From sequence record OZ346189.1: a DNA stretch of 64,000 nt. One strand, 5' to 3'. How positions within the stretch are numbered: the first letter of the stretch is position 1; the number at the start of each line of letters is the position of its first letter. The notes below the pieces were generated by a model. It searched no databases and was not told where the DNA came from. It was given only the letters and a program-made list of their open reading frames with translations. The position numbers were made by a program, and so were the translations under genes. The stretch comes from a phage. Below are positions 3,309-61,555 of this stretch, piece after piece.

Positions 3309-4531
3309 GCGTTATTCAACAATTCGCTAACCCGATGAATCCGCGTGAAACTGTTTTACTGGCTCACGGCATGATTAAACGCGTCAGCATCAAGCCTATC
3401 AAAGGTGCTGATCCTACAACAGGTATTAAAACCACTGTGTGGCAAGGTAAGAAAATTGAATCCAGCCACACCATCTCTTTACTGATTTCTGAACTGGATT
3501 CCTCTGATAACCTACTTCAAGGTGGTGAAGAAGTTTGGATCAGTATGGGCGATAAGCTGCTTAAACCGGGTCATCAAGACTCTGTCTCTGTTAAAATTGA
3601 TGACAAGTGGGAAACCGTAACGCCAGGATGGATCGTAAATATCCCTTTGAAGGCAAACGAGCATAACGGTAAGACCTACTACAAAGGCTCACTGGCTAAG
3701 ATGGTTAAGCTGGGTGCAGGAGAGGCTCCAGCAGCGACTCAGCAGCAAAAACAGCAACAAGGTGCACAATCACAAGGCCAGAAGCAGAAACCTCAGCAGA
3801 ATGCCAATCAGGACGTTTTACGCATCTATGGTGATGTGACTCAGATTGTTGGCAACGTGGTTACTGTAAATGACCACAAGATTGGCGAAGGTGCTATGGT
3901 TGTAACTGATGAGCAGCTTAAAGACCTGGTGGTAGGTGGTCGTGTTGCAGCCATTGTTGACAAAGACACTGGAAACATTATCAGTGGTTTCAAGGCCTAT
4001 CCTCCTAAGGCAGAGAACGGCACTCAAGGCTCCGGTGGCAAGCGTAAATCCTCTTACGACCCTATCGGTGTGGAAACGGGGCATAGCATCAATGCGTTGC
4101 AGATCATCCTGGATCGCGGGTTTAAGGTAGACGACCCACTGGGCGTGGCTAAAACACTGCACGTAGTCACCATTGAGCTTAAGAAAGAGTATGCTCAAGC
4201 CACCAACCGAACTGAAGATGAAGTAGGTGCCAGTGTCGGTAATGCGGTGTTGAACGCTTGTCGCCGTATTGACAAGAAAACGAAAGTTGATGATTTTGCA
4301 GCGGCAATTACTGCAGAAGCAAAAGATGTCTTGACTAATCTGGCTGAGCCGTTGTACGATTGGATCAAGAACGGTGCTGGGTCAACTGACCATCAAGAAC
4401 CTCAGGCTGCCAAACAGGAAGCAGCTCCACAGCAAAACACTGTAGACGCTCCTCCTGTAAATGATGGGGAAGATGACCCGATGGATCAGAATCCAGCACA
4501 GTACGCCTTTGATGATGACATCCCTTTTTAA
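3305..4531 (+). CDS. ssb: single-stranded DNA-binding protein with acidic C-terminal tail
   Basis: 408 aa; C-terminus ends DDDIPF (the E. coli SSB protein-interaction tail); Q/G-rich linker; RBS GGAGACAAAGA. Confidence 0.65.
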   Translation: MSVIQQFANPMNPRETVLLAHGMIKRVSIKPIKGADPTTGIKTTVWQGKKIESSHTISLLISELDSSDNLLQGGEEVWISMGDKLLKPGHQDSVSVKIDDKWETVTPGWIVNIPLKANEHNGKTYYKGSLAKMVKLGAGEAPAATQQQKQQQGAQSQGQKQKPQQNANQDVLRIYGDVTQIVGNVVTVNDHKIGEGAMVVTDEQLKDLVVGGRVAAIVDKDTGNIISGFKAYPPKAENGTQGSGGKRKSSYDPIGVETGHSINALQIILDRGFKVDDPLGVAKTLHVVTIELKKEYAQATNRTEDEVGASVGNAVLNACRRIDKKTKVDDFAAAITAEAKDVLTNLAEPLYDWIKNGAGSTDHQEPQAAKQEAAPQQNTVDAPPVNDGEDDPMDQNPAQYAFDDDIPF

Positions 4532-4593: not shown

Positions 4594-5010
4594 ATGACAT
4601 TAGAAGATATCATTGTTAAACCTGAGAACTATGACCAATACAACCTGTCAACTCAATCTGTAGACCTTGGATGCGCCACAGTTAGTGCGTGGCTGGTTAA
4701 TGGAAAAGAGCTGGACAAGTGCTTAGAAGCTCACATGTCTGTTAACAAGTTTCTGGATGAAAATACTCACTGGCTTGAGGGTGCTGGAGTATATGCTTCA
4801 TGGTTGGAGAGCATGGGCTTTGACTATCAATCTGATGAAGGGTGGTGGAGCTATCTGGCTATCTGTCCAGAAACACTGCAATGCTTCATGAAATACTCTG
4901 AAGATCTTGAGTACCGAGCGGTGGTTGATAGTGCTATTGCCCGTTATAGCCGTAAACCTTTTTCCCATGACATTAAAACTGTGGAAGAATTTGTTGAAGT
5001 TTTCTGTTGA
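4594..5010 (+). CDS. hypothetical protein
   Basis: ORF with TAAGGAGA RBS. Confidence 0.5.
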   Translation: MTLEDIIVKPENYDQYNLSTQSVDLGCATVSAWLVNGKELDKCLEAHMSVNKFLDENTHWLEGAGVYASWLESMGFDYQSDEGWWSYLAICPETLQCFMKYSEDLEYRAVVDSAIARYSRKPFSHDIKTVEEFVEVFC

Positions 5011-5106
5011 CACAGGTTGAAAGGTGTGCAATTATAACTTCATAAAACGGGAGGACGCGATGAACGAAGAAAACTGGGATGTATAACTAACAGGAGACCA
5101 CTGCCC

Positions 5107-8099: not shown

Positions 8100-8600
8100 G
8101 AGGATTTCTAAAATGGATTTCCTCCTTTTGATATTTCACCGGGCCAGATATTTTAAAATTCTTAGAAAATCAGAAAATGGATCGAAAACTAAAATGGATT
8201 TTTCAAGACAGGCACGATAAGATGTGCTGCTCATTCTATCGTTCGCACCGTACTTTAAGTCACTATTCCAGATTTTTCCGCACATACTCTCACCCTTCTA
8301 CCAGAACTTTCCCAGCTTACCTCTGACCTTTTATAACAATAAGTCCATTATTATCAGAAAGTTTCGGCACATCTCTTTCGGTACTCGATCTGTTTTTCAT
8401 TTCAAAGACCTGATTTTCTGAAAATTTTTCTCGATAAATTTCTTAGTACTCGATCTGTTTTTCGTTTTCTGAATCGGATTTTCTGGAAATCGTTCCAGCC
8501 CTCGACCTGAAATTTTTGGGGACGAAATCGATTTTTCGTTTTCAGAAATGGATTTTTAAAATTTCTATATGGGAATATTTTATGGGATACTGTTTTATAG
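8100..8600. repeat. iteron-rich AT-rich non-coding region
   Basis: repeated short motifs (aaatggattt x4, tactcgatctgtttttc x2, cgatttttcgttttc) with no convincing ORF. Confidence 0.5.
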
Positions 8601-8617
8601 GAAATTGTTACGGAGGG

Positions 8618-8635
8618 TAATTAGCATGCTAATTA
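8618..8635. promoter_or_regulatory. perfect 18-bp palindrome TAATTAGCATGCTAATTA
   Basis: perfect inverted repeat seen directly; operator-like. Confidence 0.4.
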
Positions 8636-8671
8636 AATTTATTAAATGCGAGGAGTTCTCATTTAGAATTT

Positions 8672-8745
8672 TGAATGATAATCATTCTCGTTTGCAGAAT
8701 AACGGGCAGGCCCGGTGATTGTCTCCCGGCCCCTGTTGCCCCGGC
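8672..8745 (+). repeat. repeat element R1 (core GGCAGGCCCGGTGATTGTCTCCC at 8705..8727)
   Basis: related direct copy R2 at 8803..8880; inverted copy of the core at 18492..18514 (22/23 nt identical). Confidence 0.55.
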
Positions 8746-8802
8746 TTGTTATTATAGTATCACACAGGACAAAGAAAGCAAGGATTTTTTGCATAAATTT
8801 TT

Positions 8803-8880
8803 AAATGATAATGATAACCGTTCTCATTTTATGCAGCGCCCATCCCCGGTGGTTGTCTCCCCCGTCACCGGTGCCTGCCG
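8803..8880 (+). repeat. repeat element R2 (R1-like)
   Basis: shares AATGATAAT...TCTC.TTT...CCGGTG.TTGTCTCCC with R1. Confidence 0.5.
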
Positions 8881-9344
8881 TCCTTTCGATAGGTATATTG
8901 TGCCACCTGGCGGGGCCGCTGTCAACACTTCTTCAAAAATTTTTTCTAACATAATGCACCAACCGCTGCAACCTGGCGGGGCCAGCCTGGCAGGACCTGA
9001 CTGACCAGGTAGGAGAGAGTGAAAACTTGCAAACCTGGTAGGCCTATGCTACAGGGCAGGTAACAATTGAAGAGGAGGTACAAAAATGAAAAGTAATATA
9101 ATCCCCTGGAAAATGTAGCGATCAACGCCGCTGAAGTTATCACCCTGGTTGAAAAGGCTATGGCGGGAGCGTTGGAACATAAAGAAGAGTACGAAAAATG
9201 ATGGTTAACCTGGCAGGGGCGGCGGCTGGAGAATTCTTCCCAAAAAATAATTCTAACTAATGGTTGACAGCTCGGAGAGTTCTGTTATTCTTATCCTCGC
9301 AAGGTGAACAACACCACACTAATTAACAGAGAGGATAAAAAATC

Positions 9345-9542
9345 ATGAACGCCTACGGAATTAAAGTACGTCGCAACACTCACCAGGCCGTCACCGATCA
9401 AATGGTTTGCCAGGTGGACGTAACCATCAACAACGGGCAAGGCCTTTATAAATTCCGTCGCGGTCAGAGCTATACCCGGCAACAGCTTAATCGTTGCGCC
9501 CTGACAAAAGGCCAGATCAACCACTGGTTTAATAAAAAATAA
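9345..9542 (+). CDS. hypothetical protein
   Basis: ORF with AGAGGA RBS. Confidence 0.5.
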   Translation: MNAYGIKVRRNTHQAVTDQMVCQVDVTINNGQGLYKFRRGQSYTRQQLNRCALTKGQINHWFNKK

Positions 9543-9606
9543 GTATTGACATATAGTCTGACACCAAATACACTAAAAGCACAAAAGACACTAAGAGGAT
9601 AAAATC

Positions 9607-10005
9607 ATGAAAACCACTACCTTTAATTTTGATAATGCGGACTTTTCTTTTTCTGATGTCAAGAACTGCCGCCGGGATCGTGGATTTTACAAGGCTTATA
9701 ATCTGGTGGGCCTGGACGATGACAATAATTTGCACGAAGTAGCTGAGATCCGGTATTATGCCGCCGCCAGCGGGAACACTCAATACTGCGTTTTTTGGAT
9801 TCACGACAACAAGAACAATAAGTACGGTTATACTGGCGGGAAGGCGAGCGGTCACGGTTACGATAAAGCTAATGCAGCACTTGAGAGCGCATTAAATGCT
9901 ATGGGGATCACTGCCAACGGCTGGATCTATGAAGAAGAGTTTTTGTCGGCACTTGCTGACCACCTGGGCTATAAAAAGCACATTGTAACATGCGCCCACG
10001 AATAA
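9607..10005 (+). CDS. hypothetical protein
   Basis: ORF with TAAGAGGA RBS and upstream TTGACA promoter. Confidence 0.5.
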   Translation: MKTTTFNFDNADFSFSDVKNCRRDRGFYKAYNLVGLDDDNNLHEVAEIRYYAAASGNTQYCVFWIHDNKNNKYGYTGGKASGHGYDKANAALESALNAMGITANGWIYEEEFLSALADHLGYKKHIVTCAHE

Positions 10006-10011
10006 AAATTG

Positions 10012-10039
10012 TTGACACGCTGCAAAATTCAAGTAAACT
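10012..10039 (+). promoter_or_regulatory. sigma70-like promoter (TTGACA-16-TAAACT)
   Basis: hexamers upstream of ORF 10088. Confidence 0.4.
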
Positions 10040-10087
10040 AGTCACAAAAGGCGGGAATGTTTCCCGCCAACACAAAGGAAAAAGATC

Positions 10088-10492
10088 ATGAATAAGAACG
10101 TACGCCGCATCATGAACGAACTGGCAAACGATGAAAAAATTATTGACATGCATTTGATCAACATTTGCCGCCGTTGTGTAACATATAACAACCGCGCCGC
10201 AAAAGCGCGTGAGATGAACGCAAAAGGCACCTTAAAGCCATTCCAGGTGGTGGTAAAGGCCATTAAAGATGTAGCTAATACGGCAAACCAGGTACAGGGG
10301 AACACCAACGAGAGTACCAATATTGATCCGGCTTACATCATGAAACGGATCCGGACCTGCAAGAACAAAGAGCAAGTGTATAATGTCATAGACTGGTTGG
10401 ATTCTATGGGCGATGTGGTGTACAATAGATTCTCGGCAGCTATTGAGATCCAGCTTGACAGGTTAGACGGTAAAGTACTTAAAACTTACTAA
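10088..10492 (+). CDS. hypothetical protein
   Basis: ORF with AAAGGAAAAAG RBS. Confidence 0.5.
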   Translation: MNKNVRRIMNELANDEKIIDMHLINICRRCVTYNNRAAKAREMNAKGTLKPFQVVVKAIKDVANTANQVQGNTNESTNIDPAYIMKRIRTCKNKEQVYNVIDWLDSMGDVVYNRFSAAIEIQLDRLDGKVLKTY

Positions 10493-10493
10493 A

Positions 10494-10539
10494 TTTATTT
10501 TTAGATGGCCTTGACTCCAGGGCCATCAATAAAGTAAAT
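10494..10539 (+). promoter_or_regulatory. repeated hairpin-promoter element, copy 1
   Basis: TTTATTTTTAG + ATGGCC/GGCCAT stem with TTGACT in the loop, then CAATAAAGTAAAT; near-identical copies at 11117 and 14853. Confidence 0.45.
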
Positions 10540-10771
10540 TAATCTCAGCTAAGCGAAAAAGGGGGCTTTAAGATGAGCACTACACGCCAATACACAAAGG
10601 TAACTATTATCGCCTGCGTTGTCGGTTACATCCTGGCGCAAATGTTAATGAGTAGCGCTAACAGTTTTGCAAAATTTTTCTTAAATTTTTAATTGACAAG
10701 CTAACTTAGATTGATATACTTAAACACGTAAACGGGAAAACTTCCCAGAACACACAAAAGGAGAAAACACC

Positions 10772-11113
10772 ATGACTACTATGACCGCCGCAGAAAAAGC
10801 TATTCAGATCGCCGCACTGAAAAAACAGATCGCAGACCTTGAGAACAAGATCGATAACTTTGAAATCGACGAGGACAAGTACGACGAAAACTATGATGAA
10901 TGGTTAGACGAGATCTACGGCGAAATTATGATCGGAAACATTTCTTTTCTTCCGTCGCGTATCCTCAAGGAGCTAGATCCTATCACTTACCGCTGCGGAT
11001 TTAGCGACTACATCGACAGCCTGGATATTGAGGACGATGAAGAATACCAGGAATTACAGACAGAGTTAGAAGAAGCAAAAGAAGAGCTTGCAGAACTGGA
11101 AGAAAACGAGTAA
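10772..11113 (+). CDS. hypothetical highly acidic coiled-coil protein
   Basis: ORF with AAAGGAGAAAA RBS; runs of D/E (DEDKYDENYDEW, DIEDDEEYQELQTELEEAKEELAELEENE). Confidence 0.5.
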   Translation: MTTMTAAEKAIQIAALKKQIADLENKIDNFEIDEDKYDENYDEWLDEIYGEIMIGNISFLPSRILKELDPITYRCGFSDYIDSLDIEDDEEYQELQTELEEAKEELAELEENE

Positions 11114-11116
11114 GAT

Positions 11117-11159
11117 TATTTTTAGATGGCCTTGACTCCAGGGCCATCAATAAAGTAAA
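11117..11159 (+). promoter_or_regulatory. repeated hairpin-promoter element, copy 2
   Basis: near-identical to 10494..10539. Confidence 0.45.
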
Positions 11160-11202
11160 CTTTATACTGTTAACACTGAACTAATGCATAGGAGTTAAAA
11201 CC

Positions 11203-11448
11203 ATGGCAGCACTAATCACCAAATATTATGCCCCTACCAACACCAAAAGCGCCCGTATCATGGTAAAAGGCTTCGGACGTAAAAAGGTGTACACCTGGGA
11301 TTATGCCTTAGACACGGAAGACAACTACACCAACGCGATGACCGATTTTATTAATGATCTGAACACGCGGATCTTGACAAATTATAAAATTACCGATATT
11401 GCCTATATAGGGGAAGGCGGGATCTGTTTTGTCGGTATCGTCAAATAA
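11203..11448 (+). CDS. hypothetical protein
   Basis: ORF with TAGGAG RBS. Confidence 0.5.
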   Translation: MAALITKYYAPTNTKSARIMVKGFGRKKVYTWDYALDTEDNYTNAMTDFINDLNTRILTNYKITDIAYIGEGGICFVGIVK

Positions 11449-11523
11449 GCTGTTTTTTCGGTGGTCCTGGTAGCAGGGCCATCTATAAAGATAGTTTATC
11501 AATACAATGAAAGGAGAAAGTAC

Positions 11524-11877
11524 ATGATCAGCGGGGCAAGTTTTATTATTGGCGCTATTGCTACGGCTTTAATTGTAAACAAGATCCAATCTAAAAACGA
11601 AAAAGATAGCAACGCCCTTACAGAATACCCGTTTTGGGTATTCAACGACAATGAAGACTATATTATCAAGTACAAGAATGAGAAGGGCGACCAGGTAACA
11701 CCGCGACCGATCCCGGCTTACAAGATGCAAGAAACACTATACCGCCTAAAGGCTGGAGGCGCAAAAATCGTAGACTTTTGGGGATACGATCACACAGATC
11801 AGGAAGTTATAAAGCGCCGTATCCGGGCTATTCAGGCCAATATTGAAGTTAGCAAGGGGGGAATATATGAAGATTAA
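11524..11877 (+). CDS. hypothetical membrane-anchored protein
   Basis: ATG at 11524 after AAAGGAGAAAG RBS; N-terminal TM segment (track ORF 11461..11877). Confidence 0.45.
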   Translation: MISGASFIIGAIATALIVNKIQSKNEKDSNALTEYPFWVFNDNEDYIIKYKNEKGDQVTPRPIPAYKMQETLYRLKAGGAKIVDFWGYDHTDQEVIKRRIRAIQANIEVSKGGIYED

Positions 11878-12064
11878 TTTTGAGAAGATTGTAAAGCGAT
11901 CTCATGCTTCCGAAGAGCTGCCGGAACGCCGCCAGCGCAACAATAAACTGAATAAGCCAAAAAGATTTGGGAAGATCTGGCGGAATCATTATGATCGCAA
12001 ATTACCGGGCCTGCTTTTGGAACGTGAACGACAGGCGGAACGATACCGCCACAAAGGCAAATAA
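11867..12064 (+). CDS. hypothetical basic protein
   Basis: ATG at 11867 after AAGGGGGG RBS; K/R-rich. Confidence 0.4.
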   Translation: MKINFEKIVKRSHASEELPERRQRNNKLNKPKRFGKIWRNHYDRKLPGLLLERERQAERYRHKGK

Positions 12065-12071
12065 CAACCAA

Positions 12072-12100
12072 CGCCCCGCCATTGTGCGGGGCTTTTTATT
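12072..12100 (+). terminator. rho-independent terminator
   Basis: hairpin CCCCGC-cattgt-GCGGGG followed by TTTTT. Confidence 0.65.
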
Positions 12101-12245
12101 TCTATCCTACGAATAGCGCCCCCGGTTGGCCCTGTAAGCGCCAAAAAGGCCCCACCTATGCAATCGCCCCCCTTTAACCTGAAAACATCGCTTAGGGCCG
12201 TTTTATGGCGTTAAAAATATCATTGATAGTGATTTTATTTAAAGC

Positions 12246-12273
12246 TTGACATCTTAAACAGGTTAGCTATACT
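12246..12273 (+). promoter_or_regulatory. sigma70-like promoter (TTGACA-16-TATACT)
   Basis: hexamers upstream of ORF 12306. Confidence 0.45.
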
Positions 12274-12305
12274 AACCACATCAAAGAGAGAAAGGAGTAA
12301 ACGCC

Positions 12306-12566
12306 ATGCGTAAATTAAAAAATTTTGATAAAGTTGATGTTGTCCTGAATAATTTTTACTACTGCAACAACAAGGCCATTTGGTGGCGTGATAGTTCCAC
12401 CGATAAAGTCAAGGCGCGCTTTCTCCAGGGGCACTGGCAAGGCCGTCCAGTGATTAAAATCATGGGGCAATTGGTAGCGTTTAAAAATTGCCGCCGTGTT
12501 GATGACGTTGAGGAGATTTTAAACATTTTGCGCCACAATAATTTAAAAAATAGTGTTGACAAGTAA
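12306..12566 (+). CDS. hypothetical protein
   Basis: ORF with AAAGGAG RBS. Confidence 0.5.
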   Translation: MRKLKNFDKVDVVLNNFYYCNNKAIWWRDSSTDKVKARFLQGHWQGRPVIKIMGQLVAFKNCRRVDDVEEILNILRHNNLKNSVDK

Positions 12567-12583
12567 ATCTCAATAAGTATAAT
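12556..12583 (+). promoter_or_regulatory. consensus sigma70 promoter (TTGACA-16-TATAAT)
   Basis: perfect -35 and -10 hexamers upstream of ORF 12641. Confidence 0.55.
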
Positions 12584-12640
12584 TAAACACACAGGCGGGA
12601 AAACTTCCCGCCACTAACAAAGAAAACAGGAGAAAATATC

Positions 12641-13264
12641 ATGACCACCGTTAACATTACCACAGGTTACAATTTAGCTTTCGACGTGCTGACCGACGAA
12701 CAAAAAGAAAAAGCCGTTGAAATGGTCCGCGAAAGAGAAGAACACAGCGGGGATAACTTTTTTGCAGAAAGTGTAATTGAAGACTATAAAGAATATATCT
12801 TTCCAGAGTATGGCCTTGAAGATACCGAAGTACATTGGTCCGGCTTTTGGTGCCAGGGCGACGGCGCATCAATCAGTGCGGAAAACGTGGATTTAGAAAA
12901 ATTCTTGCGTAAAGTCAAGTCTCTGACTAAATTCCGCTCAATTCGTCACTTGTTCGGCACAATGCACGATGGCGAGCTATCCGCAAGTGTTGAGCGCGAT
13001 CCATATAGCCGTTATAGTCACGAAAACACTGTAAGCGGGTACATCGATACTACATGGCTAGACCTGACCGCCAAACAAGAAAACAAAGTGGAAGACCTGG
13101 AAGAACTGATCACCGAGACGGTACGGGAGCTATCCCGCAAGGTTTACGTAGACCTGGAGGAGGCCTATCTAGAACAGTTCACCGCAGAAAACCTGATCGG
13201 CCTTATCGAGGCCAATGATTGGCGGTTTGATGTCGATGAATATGGTGAGATGACTTTTTCATAA
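12641..13264 (+). CDS. hypothetical acidic protein
   Basis: 207-aa ORF with AGGAGAAAA RBS; no family recognised. Confidence 0.5.
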   Translation: MTTVNITTGYNLAFDVLTDEQKEKAVEMVREREEHSGDNFFAESVIEDYKEYIFPEYGLEDTEVHWSGFWCQGDGASISAENVDLEKFLRKVKSLTKFRSIRHLFGTMHDGELSASVERDPYSRYSHENTVSGYIDTTWLDLTAKQENKVEDLEELITETVRELSRKVYVDLEEAYLEQFTAENLIGLIEANDWRFDVDEYGEMTFS

Positions 13265-13354
13265 ATAAAGTGTTGCAATAGCCTAAAAACCTGCTATATT
13301 AAAACTCAAGGGGGCAAGACGTTTGCCCCCACACAAAACAAAGAGGAAAACATC

Positions 13355-13735
13355 ATGAAAAACACTACTAAAGCTATTGACACTGTTATGTTTAACCTGG
13401 TTACATTCCGTGAAGATATGAAAGATCTTCCACGTGAAACAGTGTGCGATCACATTGAAAACTATCGCAAACTAATCAAAGAGTTGCCTTTAAAACGTGA
13501 CCAGTATGCGGCTAACGCTATGCTTAACGCCATGATCAAAAAGATGATTCAGTGTGATTTAACTCTGGCCTATGATTATGCAGGTGGTCGTTTTGCAGTA
13601 TACAATCAGCCCGTGCCTGGTATGAGCACCACCGAAGAATTGCACGCGTTAAATCTGAAACAAGATGTATGGGATAACATGCCCCGCGTGGTGGTGTGGG
13701 CAGAAAGCGGAAAGATTTACGGCGATAATTTTTAA
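13355..13735 (+). CDS. hypothetical protein
   Basis: ORF with AAAGAGGAAAA RBS. Confidence 0.5.
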   Translation: MKNTTKAIDTVMFNLVTFREDMKDLPRETVCDHIENYRKLIKELPLKRDQYAANAMLNAMIKKMIQCDLTLAYDYAGGRFAVYNQPVPGMSTTEELHALNLKQDVWDNMPRVVVWAESGKIYGDNF

Positions 13736-13799
13736 TCAGGTAACAGGCGGCATATTTGCCGCCTTATTGTTAAACAGAACTGCAAAAGAGGTACATAGA

Positions 13800-14171
13800 A
13801 TGGAATTTATTATTTTGGCTGTAGTAGTTGCCTTGTTCAACGCCTGGATCGCTGGCAAGATAGGTAGATCCGCTTTTCTATGGTTTGTTATATCTATTTT
13901 CCTGGGAGTGGTTGCAACTATTGTATTGGTTATCCTTGCAATTGTTGACAAGGGCGATAATAGAAAGGGTAAAGTGTTTTCCGACCTGTATGACGCACAA
14001 ACGTTTGTCAACGCCTATTATAGTGATCTTCCAGTCTCCCTACGCTGCAGCCTGGCACAACAGGTTTTTGATGAGGCTAAAACCAGAGACCAAGCCCATG
14101 AGATATGTTTAACTGAAGCGGATCGCCTATTTGAGAGGAATAGAAAATATGTGGACCAGCCGTTTAAATAA
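13800..14171 (+). CDS. hypothetical membrane protein
   Basis: ATG at 13800 after AAGAGG RBS; two predicted TM helices (track ORF 13665..14171). Confidence 0.45.
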   Translation: MEFIILAVVVALFNAWIAGKIGRSAFLWFVISIFLGVVATIVLVILAIVDKGDNRKGKVFSDLYDAQTFVNAYYSDLPVSLRCSLAQQVFDEAKTRDQAHEICLTEADRLFERNRKYVDQPFK

Positions 14172-14511
14172 CGCCACGTTAATTAATCCCTTTAGTGAAG
14201 ATTTGAAGCCAGCCGCCTGGCGTGACGGATTCAATAACGAACGCTTTATTTTCAGGCCTGATCTTGAGGAATTTTATAACAATGGATCGAACAACAGCGG
14301 AGATAATTTTTCTTGTGGTGTGCGTGGTGATAGGACTCCTGGGGGCCATTGTAAACCACGTCACTACTAACAGGAGGGAAGGGGGAGACGATGACAACCA
14401 AGGATAAGCCATGCGCTGATAAGGTGCGCCGTGTTATGGTATGGCTTGAGATTATCGCCCTTGAAATATTGTTAGGCGTAGGGATGTACTTTATCGCTGT
14501 AAGTAACTAAG

Positions 14512-14545
14512 AGCGGCCCCCGATCATGGGGGCCTATCTTTTTAA
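14512..14545 (+). terminator. rho-independent terminator
   Basis: hairpin GGCCCCC-gatcat-GGGGGCC followed by a T run. Confidence 0.6.
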
Positions 14546-14649
14546 AAAATTTTTCTTCCGGGGTGTTGCAATCCGGTCCGGAATGTGGATAATAACAATC
14601 AACGGGGAGCTAATCCCCACCACCACAAAAACCAGAAAGGAGAAACAAA

Positions 14650-14850
14650 ATGAGCAACAATATCCGCGTTATTAACTTCAAAAAAGAAGAAAAAATTGCC
14701 GTGCTGATTGACGGTCAAGAAATCTTCAAGGGCGACTATGAAGATCATCAAACGGCGATTAGTATCACTCGCGTGATTGGTTATCATAATTTCTACCCCC
14801 AAGGCGCTGAGGCAGCAGTTAAACGAATCAAAGAGATTGTAGGCCTGTAA
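14650..14850 (+). CDS. hypothetical protein
   Basis: ORF with AAAGGAGAAA RBS. Confidence 0.5.
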   Translation: MSNNIRVINFKKEEKIAVLIDGQEIFKGDYEDHQTAISITRVIGYHNFYPQGAEAAVKRIKEIVGL

Positions 14851-14852
14851 AA

Positions 14853-14898
14853 TTTATTTTTAGATGGCCTTGACTTCAGGGCCATCGATAAAGTAAAT
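14853..14898 (+). promoter_or_regulatory. repeated hairpin-promoter element, copy 3
   Basis: near-identical to 10494..10539 (TTGACTTCAGGGCCATCGATAAAGTAAAT). Confidence 0.45.
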
Positions 14899-14943
14899 TT
14901 AAACCCTGTTAAAATACCACGCAGTTAACAAGGAGTGATAGAC

Positions 14944-15243
14944 ATGTTTATCCAGGCTAATAATCTTTATTTCTTTGATGGTCAGATCGTAGATGGTGTG
15001 GAAGTGGAGATCACCGGGTGCCCTGGCGGTCAGGCTATGACTTTTCGGAATAATGCCTTTGATGATTCTCATATCGTTATGAGAATGGAAGTTACGAAGC
15101 TGGACGACAAGAAAACACTTATTGACTATTCTGTGAAAGATCATCCAGACTACCGCATGATCCATGGTGATTTGTGCATTGTTGACCGTGACAAGGTGGG
15201 CGGCATTGTGATCGCTATTGTGAACGATGTTTTCTCAAACTAA
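14944..15243 (+). CDS. hypothetical protein
   Basis: ATG at 14944, 11 nt after AAGGAG. Confidence 0.5.
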   Translation: MFIQANNLYFFDGQIVDGVEVEITGCPGGQAMTFRNNAFDDSHIVMRMEVTKLDDKKTLIDYSVKDHPDYRMIHGDLCIVDRDKVGGIVIAIVNDVFSN

Positions 15244-16387: not shown

Positions 16388-16462
16388 CATGACCATATAA
16401 GACTGTAATATATAAATCAAAGGGGGCAACTAACCCCACCAACTACAAAGAGGATAAAAATC

Positions 16463-16642
16463 ATGGCTATTATTGCAAAGACTGAGATCGTAGGCTTAGA
16501 TTCTATTCTCCTCGCATATGAGGAAGCTATAGAAATGTATGTGGTTTCCTATGGTGAGTATATCCGTGAATATAAATCTATTGATCTGGCTTTTGAATGT
16601 TATATCCGCCAGGTTAATAAAGCGTACGATGATTATCGTTAA
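16463..16642 (+). CDS. hypothetical small protein (59 aa, below the ORF-track cutoff)
   Basis: ATG after AAAGAGGATAAAAA RBS and TTGACA-16-TAATAT promoter at 16384..16411. Confidence 0.4.
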   Translation: MAIIAKTEIVGLDSILLAYEEAIEMYVVSYGEYIREYKSIDLAFECYIRQVNKAYDDYR

Positions 16643-16729
16643 AATAGTTTGACAACAGCCATCTTACAAAGCATAATACATAAGGCGGTGGAATGGTCCG
16701 CCACCTGGAACAAAGAAGAGGTAAACACC

Positions 16730-16975
16730 ATGAAAAGCAATAAAGGTTATAACGGTTACAAAAACAAAACTCATTGGAATGTAAGCCTTTGGATTAATAA
16801 CGATGAGTCATTGTACCGGTTGGCCCAAGGCTTTATTAACGCCAATGCTAATCGTAATGATGCGGCGCGGGATATGATGCTTTTTCTGGAGCTAACCGGA
16901 CAAGATAAGACCCCGGACGGCTTCAAGTACAGCACTACGGCGATCCGTGCCGCGATGGTTGGAATGAAACACTAA
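16730..16975 (+). CDS. hypothetical protein
   Basis: ATG at 16730 after AAGAGG RBS (track ORF 16649..16975). Confidence 0.45.
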   Translation: MKSNKGYNGYKNKTHWNVSLWINNDESLYRLAQGFINANANRNDAARDMMLFLELTGQDKTPDGFKYSTTAIRAAMVGMKH

Positions 16976-17166
16976 AAGCACATAGCTGCCTTACCCTGGG
17001 GCTGTGGTAGCGGCCCCATGAATAAGGTTACTAACAGAAGAGAATAAACACCATGAAACAGAAATTAATCGATGCAGTGATCTTGGTTATTGCCCTGGGT
17101 ATTGGCCTGATTGCAACCATGTCTAATATGATCTTGTCTTCCAACGGTATCGGGTGAGGTTGGCAA

Positions 17167-17382
17167 ATGATCACTAACAAAACAGGCAAAACGGAATTTT
17201 TACGCAACTTACAGATCGGCAAGCCTGAGATCTGGTACTGCACTAAAACACCACGTGACGAAATGAAAGACTTCACCGCCACGCTGCAACGGGTAAAGAT
17301 ATCTATCACGCAGAAAAAGGCCTTACTAGTGGTGGAAGGGGAGATCCCCCAAACCGTTGTTATAGTTGAGCGTACAGCATAG
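17167..17382 (+). CDS. hypothetical protein
   Basis: ORF. Confidence 0.4.
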   Translation: MITNKTGKTEFLRNLQIGKPEIWYCTKTPRDEMKDFTATLQRVKISITQKKALLVVEGEIPQTVVIVERTA

Positions 17383-17473: not shown

Positions 17474-17758
17474 ATGAAAAAGATGATCGCAGTGGTTACC
17501 CTGGTTGTTGGACTTAATGCGCCTGTAATGGCTAAAGAGCTGGCAAAAGAGGTTAATCTAACGGATATTCATGCCGTCAATCAAATCGGGGTTACTTATC
17601 GCTTATGCCTTGCCGCTAAAACTTTTAAGGACGGCACAACAGAGTACTACGGATTCGAGGGTATCCGGTGCGGTGAGCTTGCTCGCGACCTTAAGGAAGA
17701 TCCAGACCTGGAGGATCTGCCCATAACCGTGAACGGAAAAACTTACGTGAACCGTTAA
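17474..17758 (+). CDS. hypothetical secreted/periplasmic protein
   Basis: N-terminal signal peptide (MKKMIAVVTLVVGLNAPVMA); AAAGAGGA RBS. Confidence 0.5.
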   Translation: MKKMIAVVTLVVGLNAPVMAKELAKEVNLTDIHAVNQIGVTYRLCLAAKTFKDGTTEYYGFEGIRCGELARDLKEDPDLEDLPITVNGKTYVNR

Positions 17759-18404: not shown

Positions 18405-18491
18405 ATAAAAAGTGTTTTGGTACTGATTTTGGGGTTGACTTGTTCGGCCCCTTTTGCTATTCTTATTAAACGGGCGGCACTTGGGAACAGG

Positions 18492-19219: not shown

Positions 19220-19285
19220 TACAACAAGTTACATGGTCAGGGGCAATAAAGCCCCTTGATCACATAAAAATTATGCTATCCCTGG

Positions 19286-19314
19286 TTGACAGGGATCGGC
19301 AGTTTTGCTATATT
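19286..19314 (+). promoter_or_regulatory. sigma70-like promoter (TTGACA-17-TATATT)
   Basis: hexamers upstream of ORF 19364. Confidence 0.45.
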
Positions 19315-58297: not shown

Positions 58298-58366
58298 TTA
58301 ACTGTCCGTGATACGGACACATCTGCCCGTAATACGGACACTAACTGTCCGTGATACGGACACATA
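58298..58366. promoter_or_regulatory. two identical palindromic sites TAACTGTCCGTGATACGGACACAT plus a related half-site, followed by an AT-rich tract
   Basis: perfect inverted repeat TGTCCG-N5-CGGACA at 58303..58319 and 58349..58365; CCGTAATACGG between. Confidence 0.55.
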
Positions 58367-60742: not shown

Positions 60743-60817
60743 GCCCTGTTAGCTTAGTGGATAAAGCAGCGGCCTTCTAAGCCGTTGACACTGGTTCGAG
60801 TCCAGTACGGGGTGCCA
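60743..60817 (+). tRNA. tRNA-Arg (anticodon TCT)
   Basis: hand-folded cloverleaf: acceptor GCCCTGT/ACGGGGT, anticodon stem GCGGC/GCCGT with loop CTTCTAA, T-arm ACTGG-TTCGAGT-CCAGT, encoded CCA. Confidence 0.65.
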
Positions 60818-60821
60818 AATT

Positions 60822-60900
60822 GGGGAGTTATCCCGTAGAGGTAGCGGTGTAGACTGTAAATCTATTGTCATTGCGACTCGGGTGGTTCGACTCCACCACT
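60822..60900 (+). tRNA. tRNA-Tyr (anticodon GTA)
   Basis: acceptor GGGGAGT/ACTCCCC, anticodon loop CTGTAAA, long variable arm, T-arm GGTGG-TTCGACT-CCACC, CCA. Confidence 0.65.
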
Positions 60901-61022
60901 CCCCACCAAATTTATATTTTTAGATGCATAAATAATACAGATAATGGCATTGATATTTATCGTCGTTTATACTAGTCACTAACTGCTCGAAAATCAGTGT
61001 CATTATCAGTATAATTTATAAA

Positions 61023-61113
61023 GGAGGGTAGGGAGCAATGGTGCTCAAGCGGTCTTGAAAACCGTCCCGTTGAGGATGACTCGATGATGGTTCGATTCCA
61101 TTACTCTCCGCCA
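61023..61113 (+). tRNA. tRNA-Ser (anticodon TGA)
   Basis: class II fold: 3-bp D stem, anticodon loop CTTGAAA, long variable arm, T-loop TTCGATT, CCA; acceptor has one G-U pair. Confidence 0.55.
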
Positions 61114-61210
61114 CATTGTTGACCTTGTAATTAAGCGAAAGCCGGAAGCAGAACCGGATTATCAAATGTTACAGTCGTCATCGCCGACTAGCAACATGGT
61201 CAACATACTG

Positions 61211-61308
61211 AGCTAGGTAAGCCCTTTGGCAAGGGCGAGGATTTTTAATCCTGAAAATAGACGAGGTAGTCGTTGAATACATAGGTGGTTCGATTCCATC
61301 ACCTAGCA
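61211..61308 (+). tRNA. atypical tRNA-like sequence (anticodon loop reads TTTTTAA, possibly Lys-TTT) with an approximately 30-nt insertion in the variable region
   Basis: acceptor GCTAGGT/ACCTAGC, D-arm GCCC/GGGC and T-arm GGTGG-TTCGATT-CCATC are recognisable; anticodon stem has only 4 bp; no encoded CCA. Confidence 0.3.
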
Positions 61309-61315
61309 CCTTTTT

Positions 61316-61391
61316 GCTGATGTAGCACAATCGGTAGTGCAATTGATTTGTAATCAATAGGTTGTAGGTTCAAGTCCTGCCATCAGCACCA
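61316..61391 (+). tRNA. tRNA-Thr (anticodon TGT)
   Basis: acceptor GCTGATG/CATCAGC, anticodon stem ATTGA/TCAAT with loop TTTGTAA, T-loop TTCAAGT, CCA. Confidence 0.65.
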
Positions 61392-61392
61392 A

Positions 61393-61467
61393 GGCCCTGT
61401 AGCTGGAAGGTTCAAGCAAGCGACTCATAATCGCCAGACGGTGGTTCAATTCCACCCAGGGCCACCA
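61393..61467 (+). tRNA. tRNA-Met or tRNA-Ile2 (anticodon CAT)
   Basis: acceptor GGCCCTG/CAGGGCC, anticodon loop CTCATAA, T-arm GGTGG-TTCAATT-CCACC, CCA. Confidence 0.6.
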
Positions 61468-61478
61468 AATAGTAAATA

Positions 61479-61555
61479 CTCCGCGTAGCTCAGCTTGGTA
61501 GAGCGCCTGATTTGGGATCAGGAGGTCGAGTGTTCGAATCACTCCGTGGAGACCA
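61479..61555 (+). tRNA. tRNA-Pro (anticodon TGG)
   Basis: acceptor CTCCGCG/CGTGGAG, D-arm GCTC-AGCTTGGTA-GAGC, anticodon stem CCTGA/TCAGG with loop TTTGGGA, T-arm GAGTG-TTCGAAT-CACTC, CCA. Confidence 0.7.

Follow-up and report, generated by a model that had tools for sequence, protein, structure and literature searches.

Four copies of one sequence of about 50 nt separate small genes in the early region of a phage genome; the question is why such a sequence should be kept, and at what level it acts. The copies lie on the + strand of a stretch of phage DNA of 64,000 nucleotides (sequence record OZ346189.1), which is called the window below. Over 6.5 kb the window is 94-96% identical to the rV5-like phages of E. 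coli (Vequintavirus; AlexBoehm, isim and rV5_ev147 are among them). The region of the element is a series of small + strand open reading frames (ORFs), and all the ORFs that flank the copies are assigned to PHROG families of unknown function. Our answer is that the repeat appears to be maintained as a hairpin in the sense RNA, which is most likely an RNase III-type processing or 3'-stabilising site built like the R-sites of phage T7; three of the copies also carry a promoter-like match inside the hairpin.

Results

The repeat search returned one four-member family of 50 nt, at 10491-10540, 11112-11161 (94%), 14850-14899 (96%) and 11447-11496 (68%). The 22-mer ATGGCCTTGACTCCAGGGCCAT is exact at 10505-10526 and 11126-11147, has one mismatch at 14864-14885, and was matched 0 times in 100 dinucleotide-preserving shuffles of the sequence. 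A covariance model (CM) built from the four copies found these four and no further copy in the 64-kb window; the hits, with 77-84 bits, are all + strand, and on the reverse strand the copies score 28-39 bits. The start of every copy falls on the upstream ORF's stop codon, a TAA each time (Table 1), and the next ORF follows after a gap of 24-44 nt. The three near-identical copies (1, 2 and 3) are referred to as class I; the diverged copy 4 and its orthologues form class II. A chance or artefactual origin of the repeat is ruled out by the empty shuffles and by the presence of the element at orthologous sites in 121 phage records. The latter result comes from the search of related phages that an earlier, sequence-only reading of this DNA had proposed as a check. 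That reading had described three near-identical copies and one degenerate copy, each between a stop codon and the next gene, and the repeat search, the covariance model and the ORF map agree with it in this respect.

Folded as RNA, the class I copies form an upper helix of 10 bp (GAUGGCCUUG paired with CAGGGCCAUC, with one U.G pair) and a 4-nt loop. The upper helix is stacked over a 2x3 internal loop on a lower helix of 7-13 bp, made by the upstream U-run and the downstream A-rich run; the two coaxial helices amount to 20-23 bp per element. The hairpin covers the whole element, the -10-like hexamer included, and the + strand folds of the four copies range from -21 to -28 kcal/mol (z from -5 to -6.5). 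The sequence had previously been read as a 6-bp stem, ATGGCC/GGCCAT, around TTGACT. It does form a hairpin there, but the 6 bp are the core of the 10-bp helix, and the loop has 4 nt rather than 10.

Conservation of this structure was assessed in 39 distinct copies from at least 15 related genomes and contigs; copy 1 of Ga0129313 (L004/L034), which has an extra A in the internal loop, was left out of the alignment. In each of these 39 copies, the tetraloop is 10 bp above the 2x3 internal loop. The pair cells are paired in 96.2% of cases, against 35-55% when the partners are slid by 1-3 columns, and the covariation score is 0.183, against 0.02-0.055 in the slid controls; neither the observed score nor the observed percentage paired was reached in any of 500 shuffles. 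Double compensatory changes are found in four lower-helix pairs (37 cells): 14:52 (A-U/U-A), 13:53 (U-A/G.U/A-U/G-C), 11:55 (U-A/C-G) and 10:56 (G-C/A-U). The four variable pairs of the upper helix show one-sided changes only, with pairing kept via wobble; G.U or U.G occupies 102 of the 819 pair cells, at which the other strand would have A.C. The sequence mismatched at 13:53 and 14:52 is a class I/class II chimera from 241Ecol014PP (described below), as is expected if the two arms have co-evolved. Copy 1 of phage Gotham (L002, 1634-1692) is a decayed copy: its upper helix has lost 5 nt from the 3' arm, and with them the hairpin and the -35/-10 spacing are gone.

In class II the structure is wholly kept, with CCTGGT in place of the class I TTGACN. 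Copy 4 had been called "degenerate", which is correct as far as its divergence is concerned (68%); structurally, however, it is an intact second class with compensatory changes. The pairs kept at 96%, the compensatory changes, the wobbles that are possible in the sense strand only and the loss of TTGACT in class II together indicate that selection acts on the sense-strand RNA hairpin, independently of the -35 hexamer, rather than on a -35-gating hairpin in the DNA. We consider an RNA-level function of some sort rather probable.

The same evidence bears on the proposal that the element is a plain sigma-70 promoter, with an incidental hairpin, or a promoter gated by DNA structure, in which a cruciform or single-stranded DNA hairpin hides the -35; the latter is what the sequence-only reading had suggested. 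The motif TTGACN-N18-TAAAYT with its upstream T-run, the TTGACA of relatives, the PhagePromoter annotation in Gotham and the shared -10 region (all considered below) are in its favour. However, class II keeps the hairpin without a -35, and the changes that keep pairing by G.U only, together with the double compensatory ones, point to selection for pairing in one strand. The minus-strand folds are much weaker (-16.4 and -9.4 kcal/mol; the minus strand of copy 4 gives -9.4, z -1.2), and copy 4 of class II, folded as single-stranded DNA, has no extended fold. Since G.U pairs become A.C on the other strand and the class II DNA fold is lost, a cruciform or single-stranded gate is disfavoured. In addition, no N4-type phage RNA polymerase has been reported for rV5 (PMC3606486). 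We therefore do not retain the occlusion of the -35 by a DNA hairpin, and a promoter, plain or gated, seems to us an unlikely account of the element as a whole. The variability of the loop was also considered as a test of -35 function and proved uninformative: both classes are free to vary at positions 3-4 (ACTC, ACTT, ACAC, ACAT, ACCC, ACGC, ATTC; GTAG, GTAA, GTTG, GCTG), and class II, which has no -35, follows the same pattern, with the first loop base fixed and the third and fourth variable.

One part of the element is conserved more strictly than pairing needs. In its 16-nt 3' half, AGGGCCAUC-N-AUAAAG (columns 36-51), columns 36-44 and 46-51 are invariant in all 39 copies of both classes, with column 45 as the N; there is variation in the 5' arm, in the loop and in the flanks. 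It is tempting to see here an operator for an RNA- or DNA-binding protein of the phage or host that reads this half on the hairpin (a translational repressor, an antiterminator or an early-to-middle regulator). We found no candidate protein, and the flanking ORFs are all in families of unknown function; four sites, all within 4.4 kb, would make a small regulon; and gene conversion among the copies could also explain the invariance, considering that loop variants recur across loci. An operator is accordingly given a low probability.

Table 1. Positions of the four copies, their parts and the cassettes between them (window coordinates; CM, covariance model)
Feature	Positions	Strand	Description
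Copy 1 (class I), hairpin	10492..10540	+	fold -22.7 kcal/mol, z -6.2; CM 84 bits
Copy 1, parts	lower helix 10492-10501/10531-10540; internal loop 10502-10503 and 10528-10530; upper helix 10504-10513/10518-10527; loop 10514-10517	+	loop ACTC
Copy 1, stop codon	10490-10492	+	TAA, adjoins the helix base
Copy 1, promoter-like match	10511..10540	+	TTGACT 10511-10516, 18-nt spacer, TAAATT 10535-10540; consensus scan 9/12
Copy 2 (class I), hairpin	11112..11162	+	fold -21.1 kcal/mol, z -5.0; CM 83.8 bits; promoter scan
Copy 2, parts	upper helix 11125-11134/11139-11148; TTGACT 11132-11137; TAAACT 11156-11161; stop TAA 11111-11113	+	loop ACTC
Copy 4 (class II), hairpin	11445..11499	+	fold -28.2 kcal/mol, z -6.4; compensatory pairs
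Copy 4, parts	lower helix 11445-11457/11487-11499 (13 bp; stop TAA 11446-11448 inside); upper helix 11460-11469/11474-11483	+	upper helix GGUGGUCCUG/CAGGGCCAUC, two G.U; loop GUAG
Copy 3 (class I), hairpin	14850..14900	+	fold -24.7 kcal/mol, z -6.5; CM 82.9 bits; promoter scan
Copy 3, parts	upper helix 14863-14872/14877-14886; TTGACT 14870-14875; TAAATT 14894-14899; stop TAA 14848-14850	+	loop ACTT
Cassette between copies 1 and 2	10573..11113	+	39-aa ORF 10573-10692; promoter TTGACA-16-TATACT 10693-10720; 113-aa ORF 10772-11113
81-aa ORF between copies 2 and 4	11203..11448	+	deleted in 241Ecol014PP, where a chimera of a class I 5' half and a class II 3' half is left
Module of promoter, 113-aa ORF and copy 2	10692..11165	+	94.7% identity in phi92-like KKE7M

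The promoter-like match of class I reads TTGACT-N18-TAAATT or TAAACT and scores 9-10 of 12 across copies and relatives (9/12 here by the consensus scan). The T-run upstream (10494-10501 in copy 1) stands where an UP element is expected, TTGACN occupies the upper helix and the loop, and TAAAYT is part of the lower helix, on its 3' arm. The observation made earlier from the letters, a TTGACT followed by a TA-rich -10-like hexamer, is thus borne out in three similar copies with 18-nt spacing. Perfect TTGACA is found in relatives at all three class I loci, and the -10 region AAGTAAACT recurs in promoters that have no hairpin, at 10012 in the window (TTGACA-16-TAAACT) and in phi92 and ukendt (TTGCAA-16-TAAACT). 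According to the rV5 genome paper, the genome is transcribed by the host sigma-70 polymerase (PMC3606486), and this is consistent with the canonical TTGACA-N16/17-TATAnT promoter-like site found in nearly all intergenic gaps of the small-ORF region. Class I copies fill intergenic slots of a kind that elsewhere has canonical TTGACA promoters, and their own gaps contain no other promoter-like site (for copy 1, the intergenic region 10493-10572). The GenBank record of phage Gotham marks the class I copies as PhagePromoter predictions. The promoter/terminator table of the rV5 genome paper (PMC3606486) does not include the element, probably because the search there was limited to N15-17 spacers. 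In class II there is no TTGACN: the best reading is CTGGTA-N17-GATAGT, about 8/12, and the scan gave no hit in 11449-11523. Taken together, these matches make it slightly better than an even chance that the class I consensus TTGACN-N18-TAAAYT acts as a sigma-70 promoter.

Two further sites in the window, unrelated to the element, have a -35 within a hairpin. At 18431-18463 the -35 is in the hairpin GGGGTTGACTTGTTCGGCCCC, followed by TTTTGC and TATTCT; the order of terminator-like hairpin, T-run and -10 is the layout of a promoter-coupled terminator. At 19278-19314 the arms of ATCCCTG-GTTGA-CAGGGAT surround TTGACA, with TATATT as the -10. Composites of promoter and stem-loop hence appear to be a recurrent design in the window.

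Would the hairpin then terminate or attenuate transcription from upstream, with the embedded promoter restarting it? Such a promoter-terminator cassette has precedents: the composite layout matches the description of the promoter/stem-loop elements known as PeSLs (promoter-early stem-loops), including the subclass with a stem-loop that overlaps the -35 (PMC2839356), and it matches the promoter-coupled terminators, in which the stem-loop DNA doubles as the -35 (bioRxiv 10.64898/2026.08.19.745784) and of which the site at 18431-18463 is a clear example. The hairpin of the element, however, is followed by AAUAAAG and not by a U-run, the U-run being on the wrong (5') side, and the terminator scan lists no copy. 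Selection on a weak A-U lower helix is not expected of an intrinsic terminator. Besides, the ORF that follows copy 4, at 11524, lacks its own promoter-like site and so must be reached by read-through of copy 4. We regard termination as unlikely to be the role of the hairpin. An intrinsic terminator on either strand was rejected in the same scan: there is no U-run, with AAUAAAGUAAA downstream on the + strand and UAAAAAUAAA following on the minus strand, and no call was made.

The anatomy of the hairpin is better matched by a processing site, which the sequence-only reading had listed as an alternative and which we now favour on the basis of helix length, internal loop, lower-helix covariation and the T7 R-site build. 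In the case of E. coli RNase III, a helix of about two turns is the primary determinant of reactivity (PMC1540722), that is, about 22 bp (PMC6212723). Internal loops confine the cutting to one strand, with a protective 3' hairpin left (PMC1540722; PMC6212723), and the cleavage sites are enriched in intergenic regions inside transcripts (PMC6212723). Compared with a required duplex of about 20-22 bp and an internal loop about 11 bp from the hairpin loop, the element has 20-23 bp and a 2x3 loop 10 bp below the tetraloop. The covariation is concentrated in the weak A-U lower helix, which suggests selection for a continuous helix of about two turns; RNase III accounts for this better than a terminator or a block to exonucleases, for either of which the G+C stem alone would do. 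In the distal box, class I has U.G and then U-A right below the loop-closing pair, and UA/UG is the canonical distal box (PMC1540722). We put the chance that RNase III specifically acts on the hairpin at a little under even.

Several points weigh against the combination of an RNase III site with a promoter. The class II distal box is U-A plus C-G, with C-G replacing U.G. The proximal box fits in part: if the site is placed 11 bp from the loop, pb1 (U-A) and pb3 (G-C) would be non-optimal, pb2 would be A-U (good), and pb4 would fall in the internal loop. The optimum rules for the boxes (proximal: GC; AU/UA; AU; AU/UA; no antideterminant pairs) were defined on the minimal R1.1 substrate (PMC1540722), and natural sites vary. 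Most of the covariation goes back to a single ancient divergence, that of class I from class II, with a few within-class events added, so the independent events are few. The invariance of the 3' half goes beyond the needs of pairing, and the excess may come from sequence-specific protein recognition or from gene conversion. As to the promoter, a score of 9-10/12 is accompanied by a suboptimal 18-nt spacer, and about 30 matches of such quality are expected by chance per 14 kb; consequently, a score of 9/12 alone is not above chance. Finally, our literature search found no transcriptome paper and no transcript-end, RNase III or reporter data for any Vequintavirus.

Copies of the element also coincide with the junctions of deletions and of a transfer. 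IMG/VR contig 2051223002_000007 (L020) and phiWec189 (L030) lack the 621 bp between copy 1 and copy 2, and their two BLAST segments have 47-59 nt in common, which lie on one chimeric copy-1/copy-2 element. Likewise, 241Ecol014PP (L031) lacks the 335 bp between copy 2 and copy 4, with a junction overlap of 46 nt on the element; the resulting chimera is at L031:2994. Each cassette is held by about 113-115 of the 121 element-bearing records (at least 80% coverage; 113 of 121 for the cassette between copies 1 and 2), and roughly 6-8 records are without one or the other. In KKE7M, a phi92-like phage of another subfamily, the module with copy 2 stands in place of phi92 gp234, and its right junction is in AATAAAGTAAA, which is common to a phi92 promoter. 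Identical loop variants are found at different loci, which suggests gene conversion. The search for loci related to the 81-aa ORF returned two IMG/VR loci only.

KKE7M (L032) has further segments, at 4275-4468, 4999-5090 and 10118-10397, with 83-93% identity to window positions 16451-16644, 16713-16804 and 17102-17380. They suggest repeated cassette exchange between the subfamilies.

With at least 46 identical bases in direct orientation, the copies serve as points of homologous recombination, at which the ORF cassettes between them are deleted, converted or exchanged. The precise copy-to-copy deletions in three genomes, the transfer into another subfamily and the shared loop variants might lead one to consider the element primarily a signal of recombination or mobility, with any RNA or promoter role secondary. 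However, the junctions are those of ordinary homologous recombination between repeats of 46-59 bp, the copies are not accompanied by a recombinase or an endonuclease, and such a signal would leave unexplained both the strand-specific compensatory pairing and the fixed register to the stop codon; we consider it very improbable. A site-specific recombination site, for example of the integron attC type, was rejected as well: no conserved recombinase core sites were seen, there is no recombinase nearby, and the junctions fit plain homologous exchange.

The family appears to be confined to Vequintavirus. Pattern scans of IMG/VR and of metagenomes returned rV5-like contigs only, and E. coli genomes gave no match. 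In the early regions of phi92, ukendt and Av-05 the covariance model had no significant hit (the best, in Av-05, has 18 bits and E 0.7). Rfam gave no gathering-score hit in the window and, for the element, none at E<=1 in 8200-15100.

Av-05 (L011) has two mutually related hairpins, at 13320-13385 and at about 17548-17600, that are built like the element: an upper helix of 10 bp stands on a T-rich/A-rich lower one. The sequence of the upper stem is unrelated to that of the element. The first starts at a stop codon (TAG 13320-13322). They read TTGTCT/TTGACT-N16-TAGAAT with the -10 in the loop, and one compensatory change, G-C to A-U, separates the two.

Other features of the window

Two canonical early promoters, at 10693-10758 and 12556-12621, are followed by near-identical 5'-UTR (untranslated region) hairpins (GGGAAAACTTCCC, GGCGGGAAAACTTCCCGCC), which are a second repeated regulatory family of the window and may be 5'-end stabilisers of mRNA. 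Upstream of the early ORFs, at 8371-8556, there are three tandem units of about 47 nt with a period of 65-74 nt (GTACTCGATCTGTTTTTC...); the mechanical ORFs in this stretch are short (up to 65 aa). Three abutting 24-nt units TAACTGTCCGTGATACGGACACAT, each with the inverted repeat GTCCGTnnTACGGAC, form an array of operator-like appearance at 58299-58365. The 65-aa ORF at 11867-12064, which shares a transcription unit with copies 1, 2 and 4, matches Pfam PF08200 (bacteriophage T7 gp1.1 family; E 2e-10). Six clustered tRNA genes are at 60743-61552, two of them low-scoring (29.9 and 35.5 bits).

In GenBank, 17-22 records of the MG0656xx series entitled "Campylobacter phage" (host C. jejuni) are 94-95% identical to the rV5-like region of E. 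coli phages; to judge from this identity, they are probably mislabelled or contaminant assemblies.

Discussion

We presume the following course of events. In sense transcripts that read through the early region, which the host polymerase transcribes, the hairpin of about 50 nt would fold from the upstream stop codon onward. Host RNase III would act at it or, failing that, it would block a 3' exonuclease. Cleavage within or close to the internal loop's 3' side would leave the mRNA of the upstream ORF ending in a protective 3' hairpin, and the processing would uncouple the fates of the neighbouring small ORFs. The embedded promoter would probably re-initiate transcription for the downstream ORF, with starts just 3' of the hairpin. 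Since the transcripts of this promoter would start downstream of the hairpin, the RNA structure would act only on read-through transcripts from upstream. To the composite explanation as a whole, that is, a processing hairpin, a sigma-70 promoter and points of recombination in one element, we give about equal chances of being right or wrong.

A more elaborate scheme can be put forward, in which the overlap of promoter and hairpin is itself functional. It would be a two-state switch: read-through leads to a cleaved or bound hairpin, and a polymerase bound at the promoter blocks the read-through or is displaced by it, which would set the ratio of polycistronic to monocistronic mRNA for each ORFan cassette in the early phase. 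Alternatively, the invariant 3' half would be the operator of a phage RNA-binding regulator. We find this scheme improbable.

The early transcription of rV5-like phages is known solely from promoter and terminator predictions, and these phages are widely used candidates for therapy and biocontrol. The element gives annotators a concrete feature to mark. As a compact natural part that combines an insulator with a promoter, it is also a candidate for phage engineering. The shuffling of cassettes bears on the spread of ORFan genes among lytic phages.

Comparison with known systems

The closest likeness in RNA anatomy is to the early RNase III sites of phage T7 (R0.3, R0.5, R1, R1.1 and R1.3, folded alike). 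Their upper helix has about 10 bp with G.U and a loop of 4-5 nt; an internal loop separates it from the lower helix, which holds the upstream stop codon. They too are a family of mutually similar intergenic repeats in early mRNA transcribed by the host polymerase. In T7 R1.1, U.G and U-A lie below the loop-closing pair in the same orientation as in the class I copies. T7 R-sites also share intergenic regions with promoters, although the T7 promoter is beside the hairpin and that of the element is embedded in it. The element has no detectable sequence homology to the R-sites, its internal loop is smaller (2x3), its proximal box fits in part, and its cleavage is something we infer. If an RNA structure in the sense strand is conserved where ORFs meet, early genes of this group, like those of T7, may have their expression shaped by post-transcriptional processing.

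The promoters of the N4 virion RNA polymerase are short hairpins (5-7-bp stem, 3-nt loop) in the template strand, read by a phage polymerase. In common with the element, they join a promoter to a DNA inverted repeat. The element, in contrast, folds in the coding strand with pairing that relies on G.U, and rV5-like phages use the host sigma-70 polymerase (PMC3606486).

In bacterial promoter-coupled terminators (Fletcher et al., bioRxiv 10.64898/2026.08.19.745784), the DNA encoding the stem-loop doubles as the -35 of the next unit, as in the element. There, however, the T-tract is the spacer and is followed by the -10, whereas in the element it is upstream of the hairpin, which lacks termination features.

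In organisation, the element is closest to the PeSLs of the T4-type phages RB49/phi1 and KVP40/nt-1 (PMC2839356, PMC4122927), which are likewise found in a variable early region, where they separate small ORFs of unknown function. PeSL copies mediate deletion and exchange of the ORFs they flank, and the copies of the element do likewise, as seen in the three deletions and in the transfer to KKE7M. Of the properties that define a PeSL, a stable stem-loop within or overlapping the putative promoter is present here, and so is a position between ORFans in a variable region, with copy-mediated deletion, insertion or replacement of the flanked ORFs; for the sigma-70-like early promoter with an A/T-rich tract upstream, class I has a candidate; by sequence criteria, the stem-loop does not qualify as a terminator or attenuator. 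The stem-loops of PeSLs are described as terminators with G/C tracts, one of which was shown to terminate (PMC2839356, PMC4122927), whereas the element has no U-run and a two-helix RNase III-like build around the whole promoter. It also differs in that one copy is without a credible promoter and in that its host phage belongs to Vequintavirinae and not to the T4 group. The cassette-shuffling logic of T4-type PeSLs is at work in an unrelated myovirus lineage as well, and across a subfamily border (rV5-like to phi92-like). The element introduces no new mechanism or principle; it is an undescribed example of a known design, with a PeSL-like organisation and a T7 R-site-like RNA anatomy.

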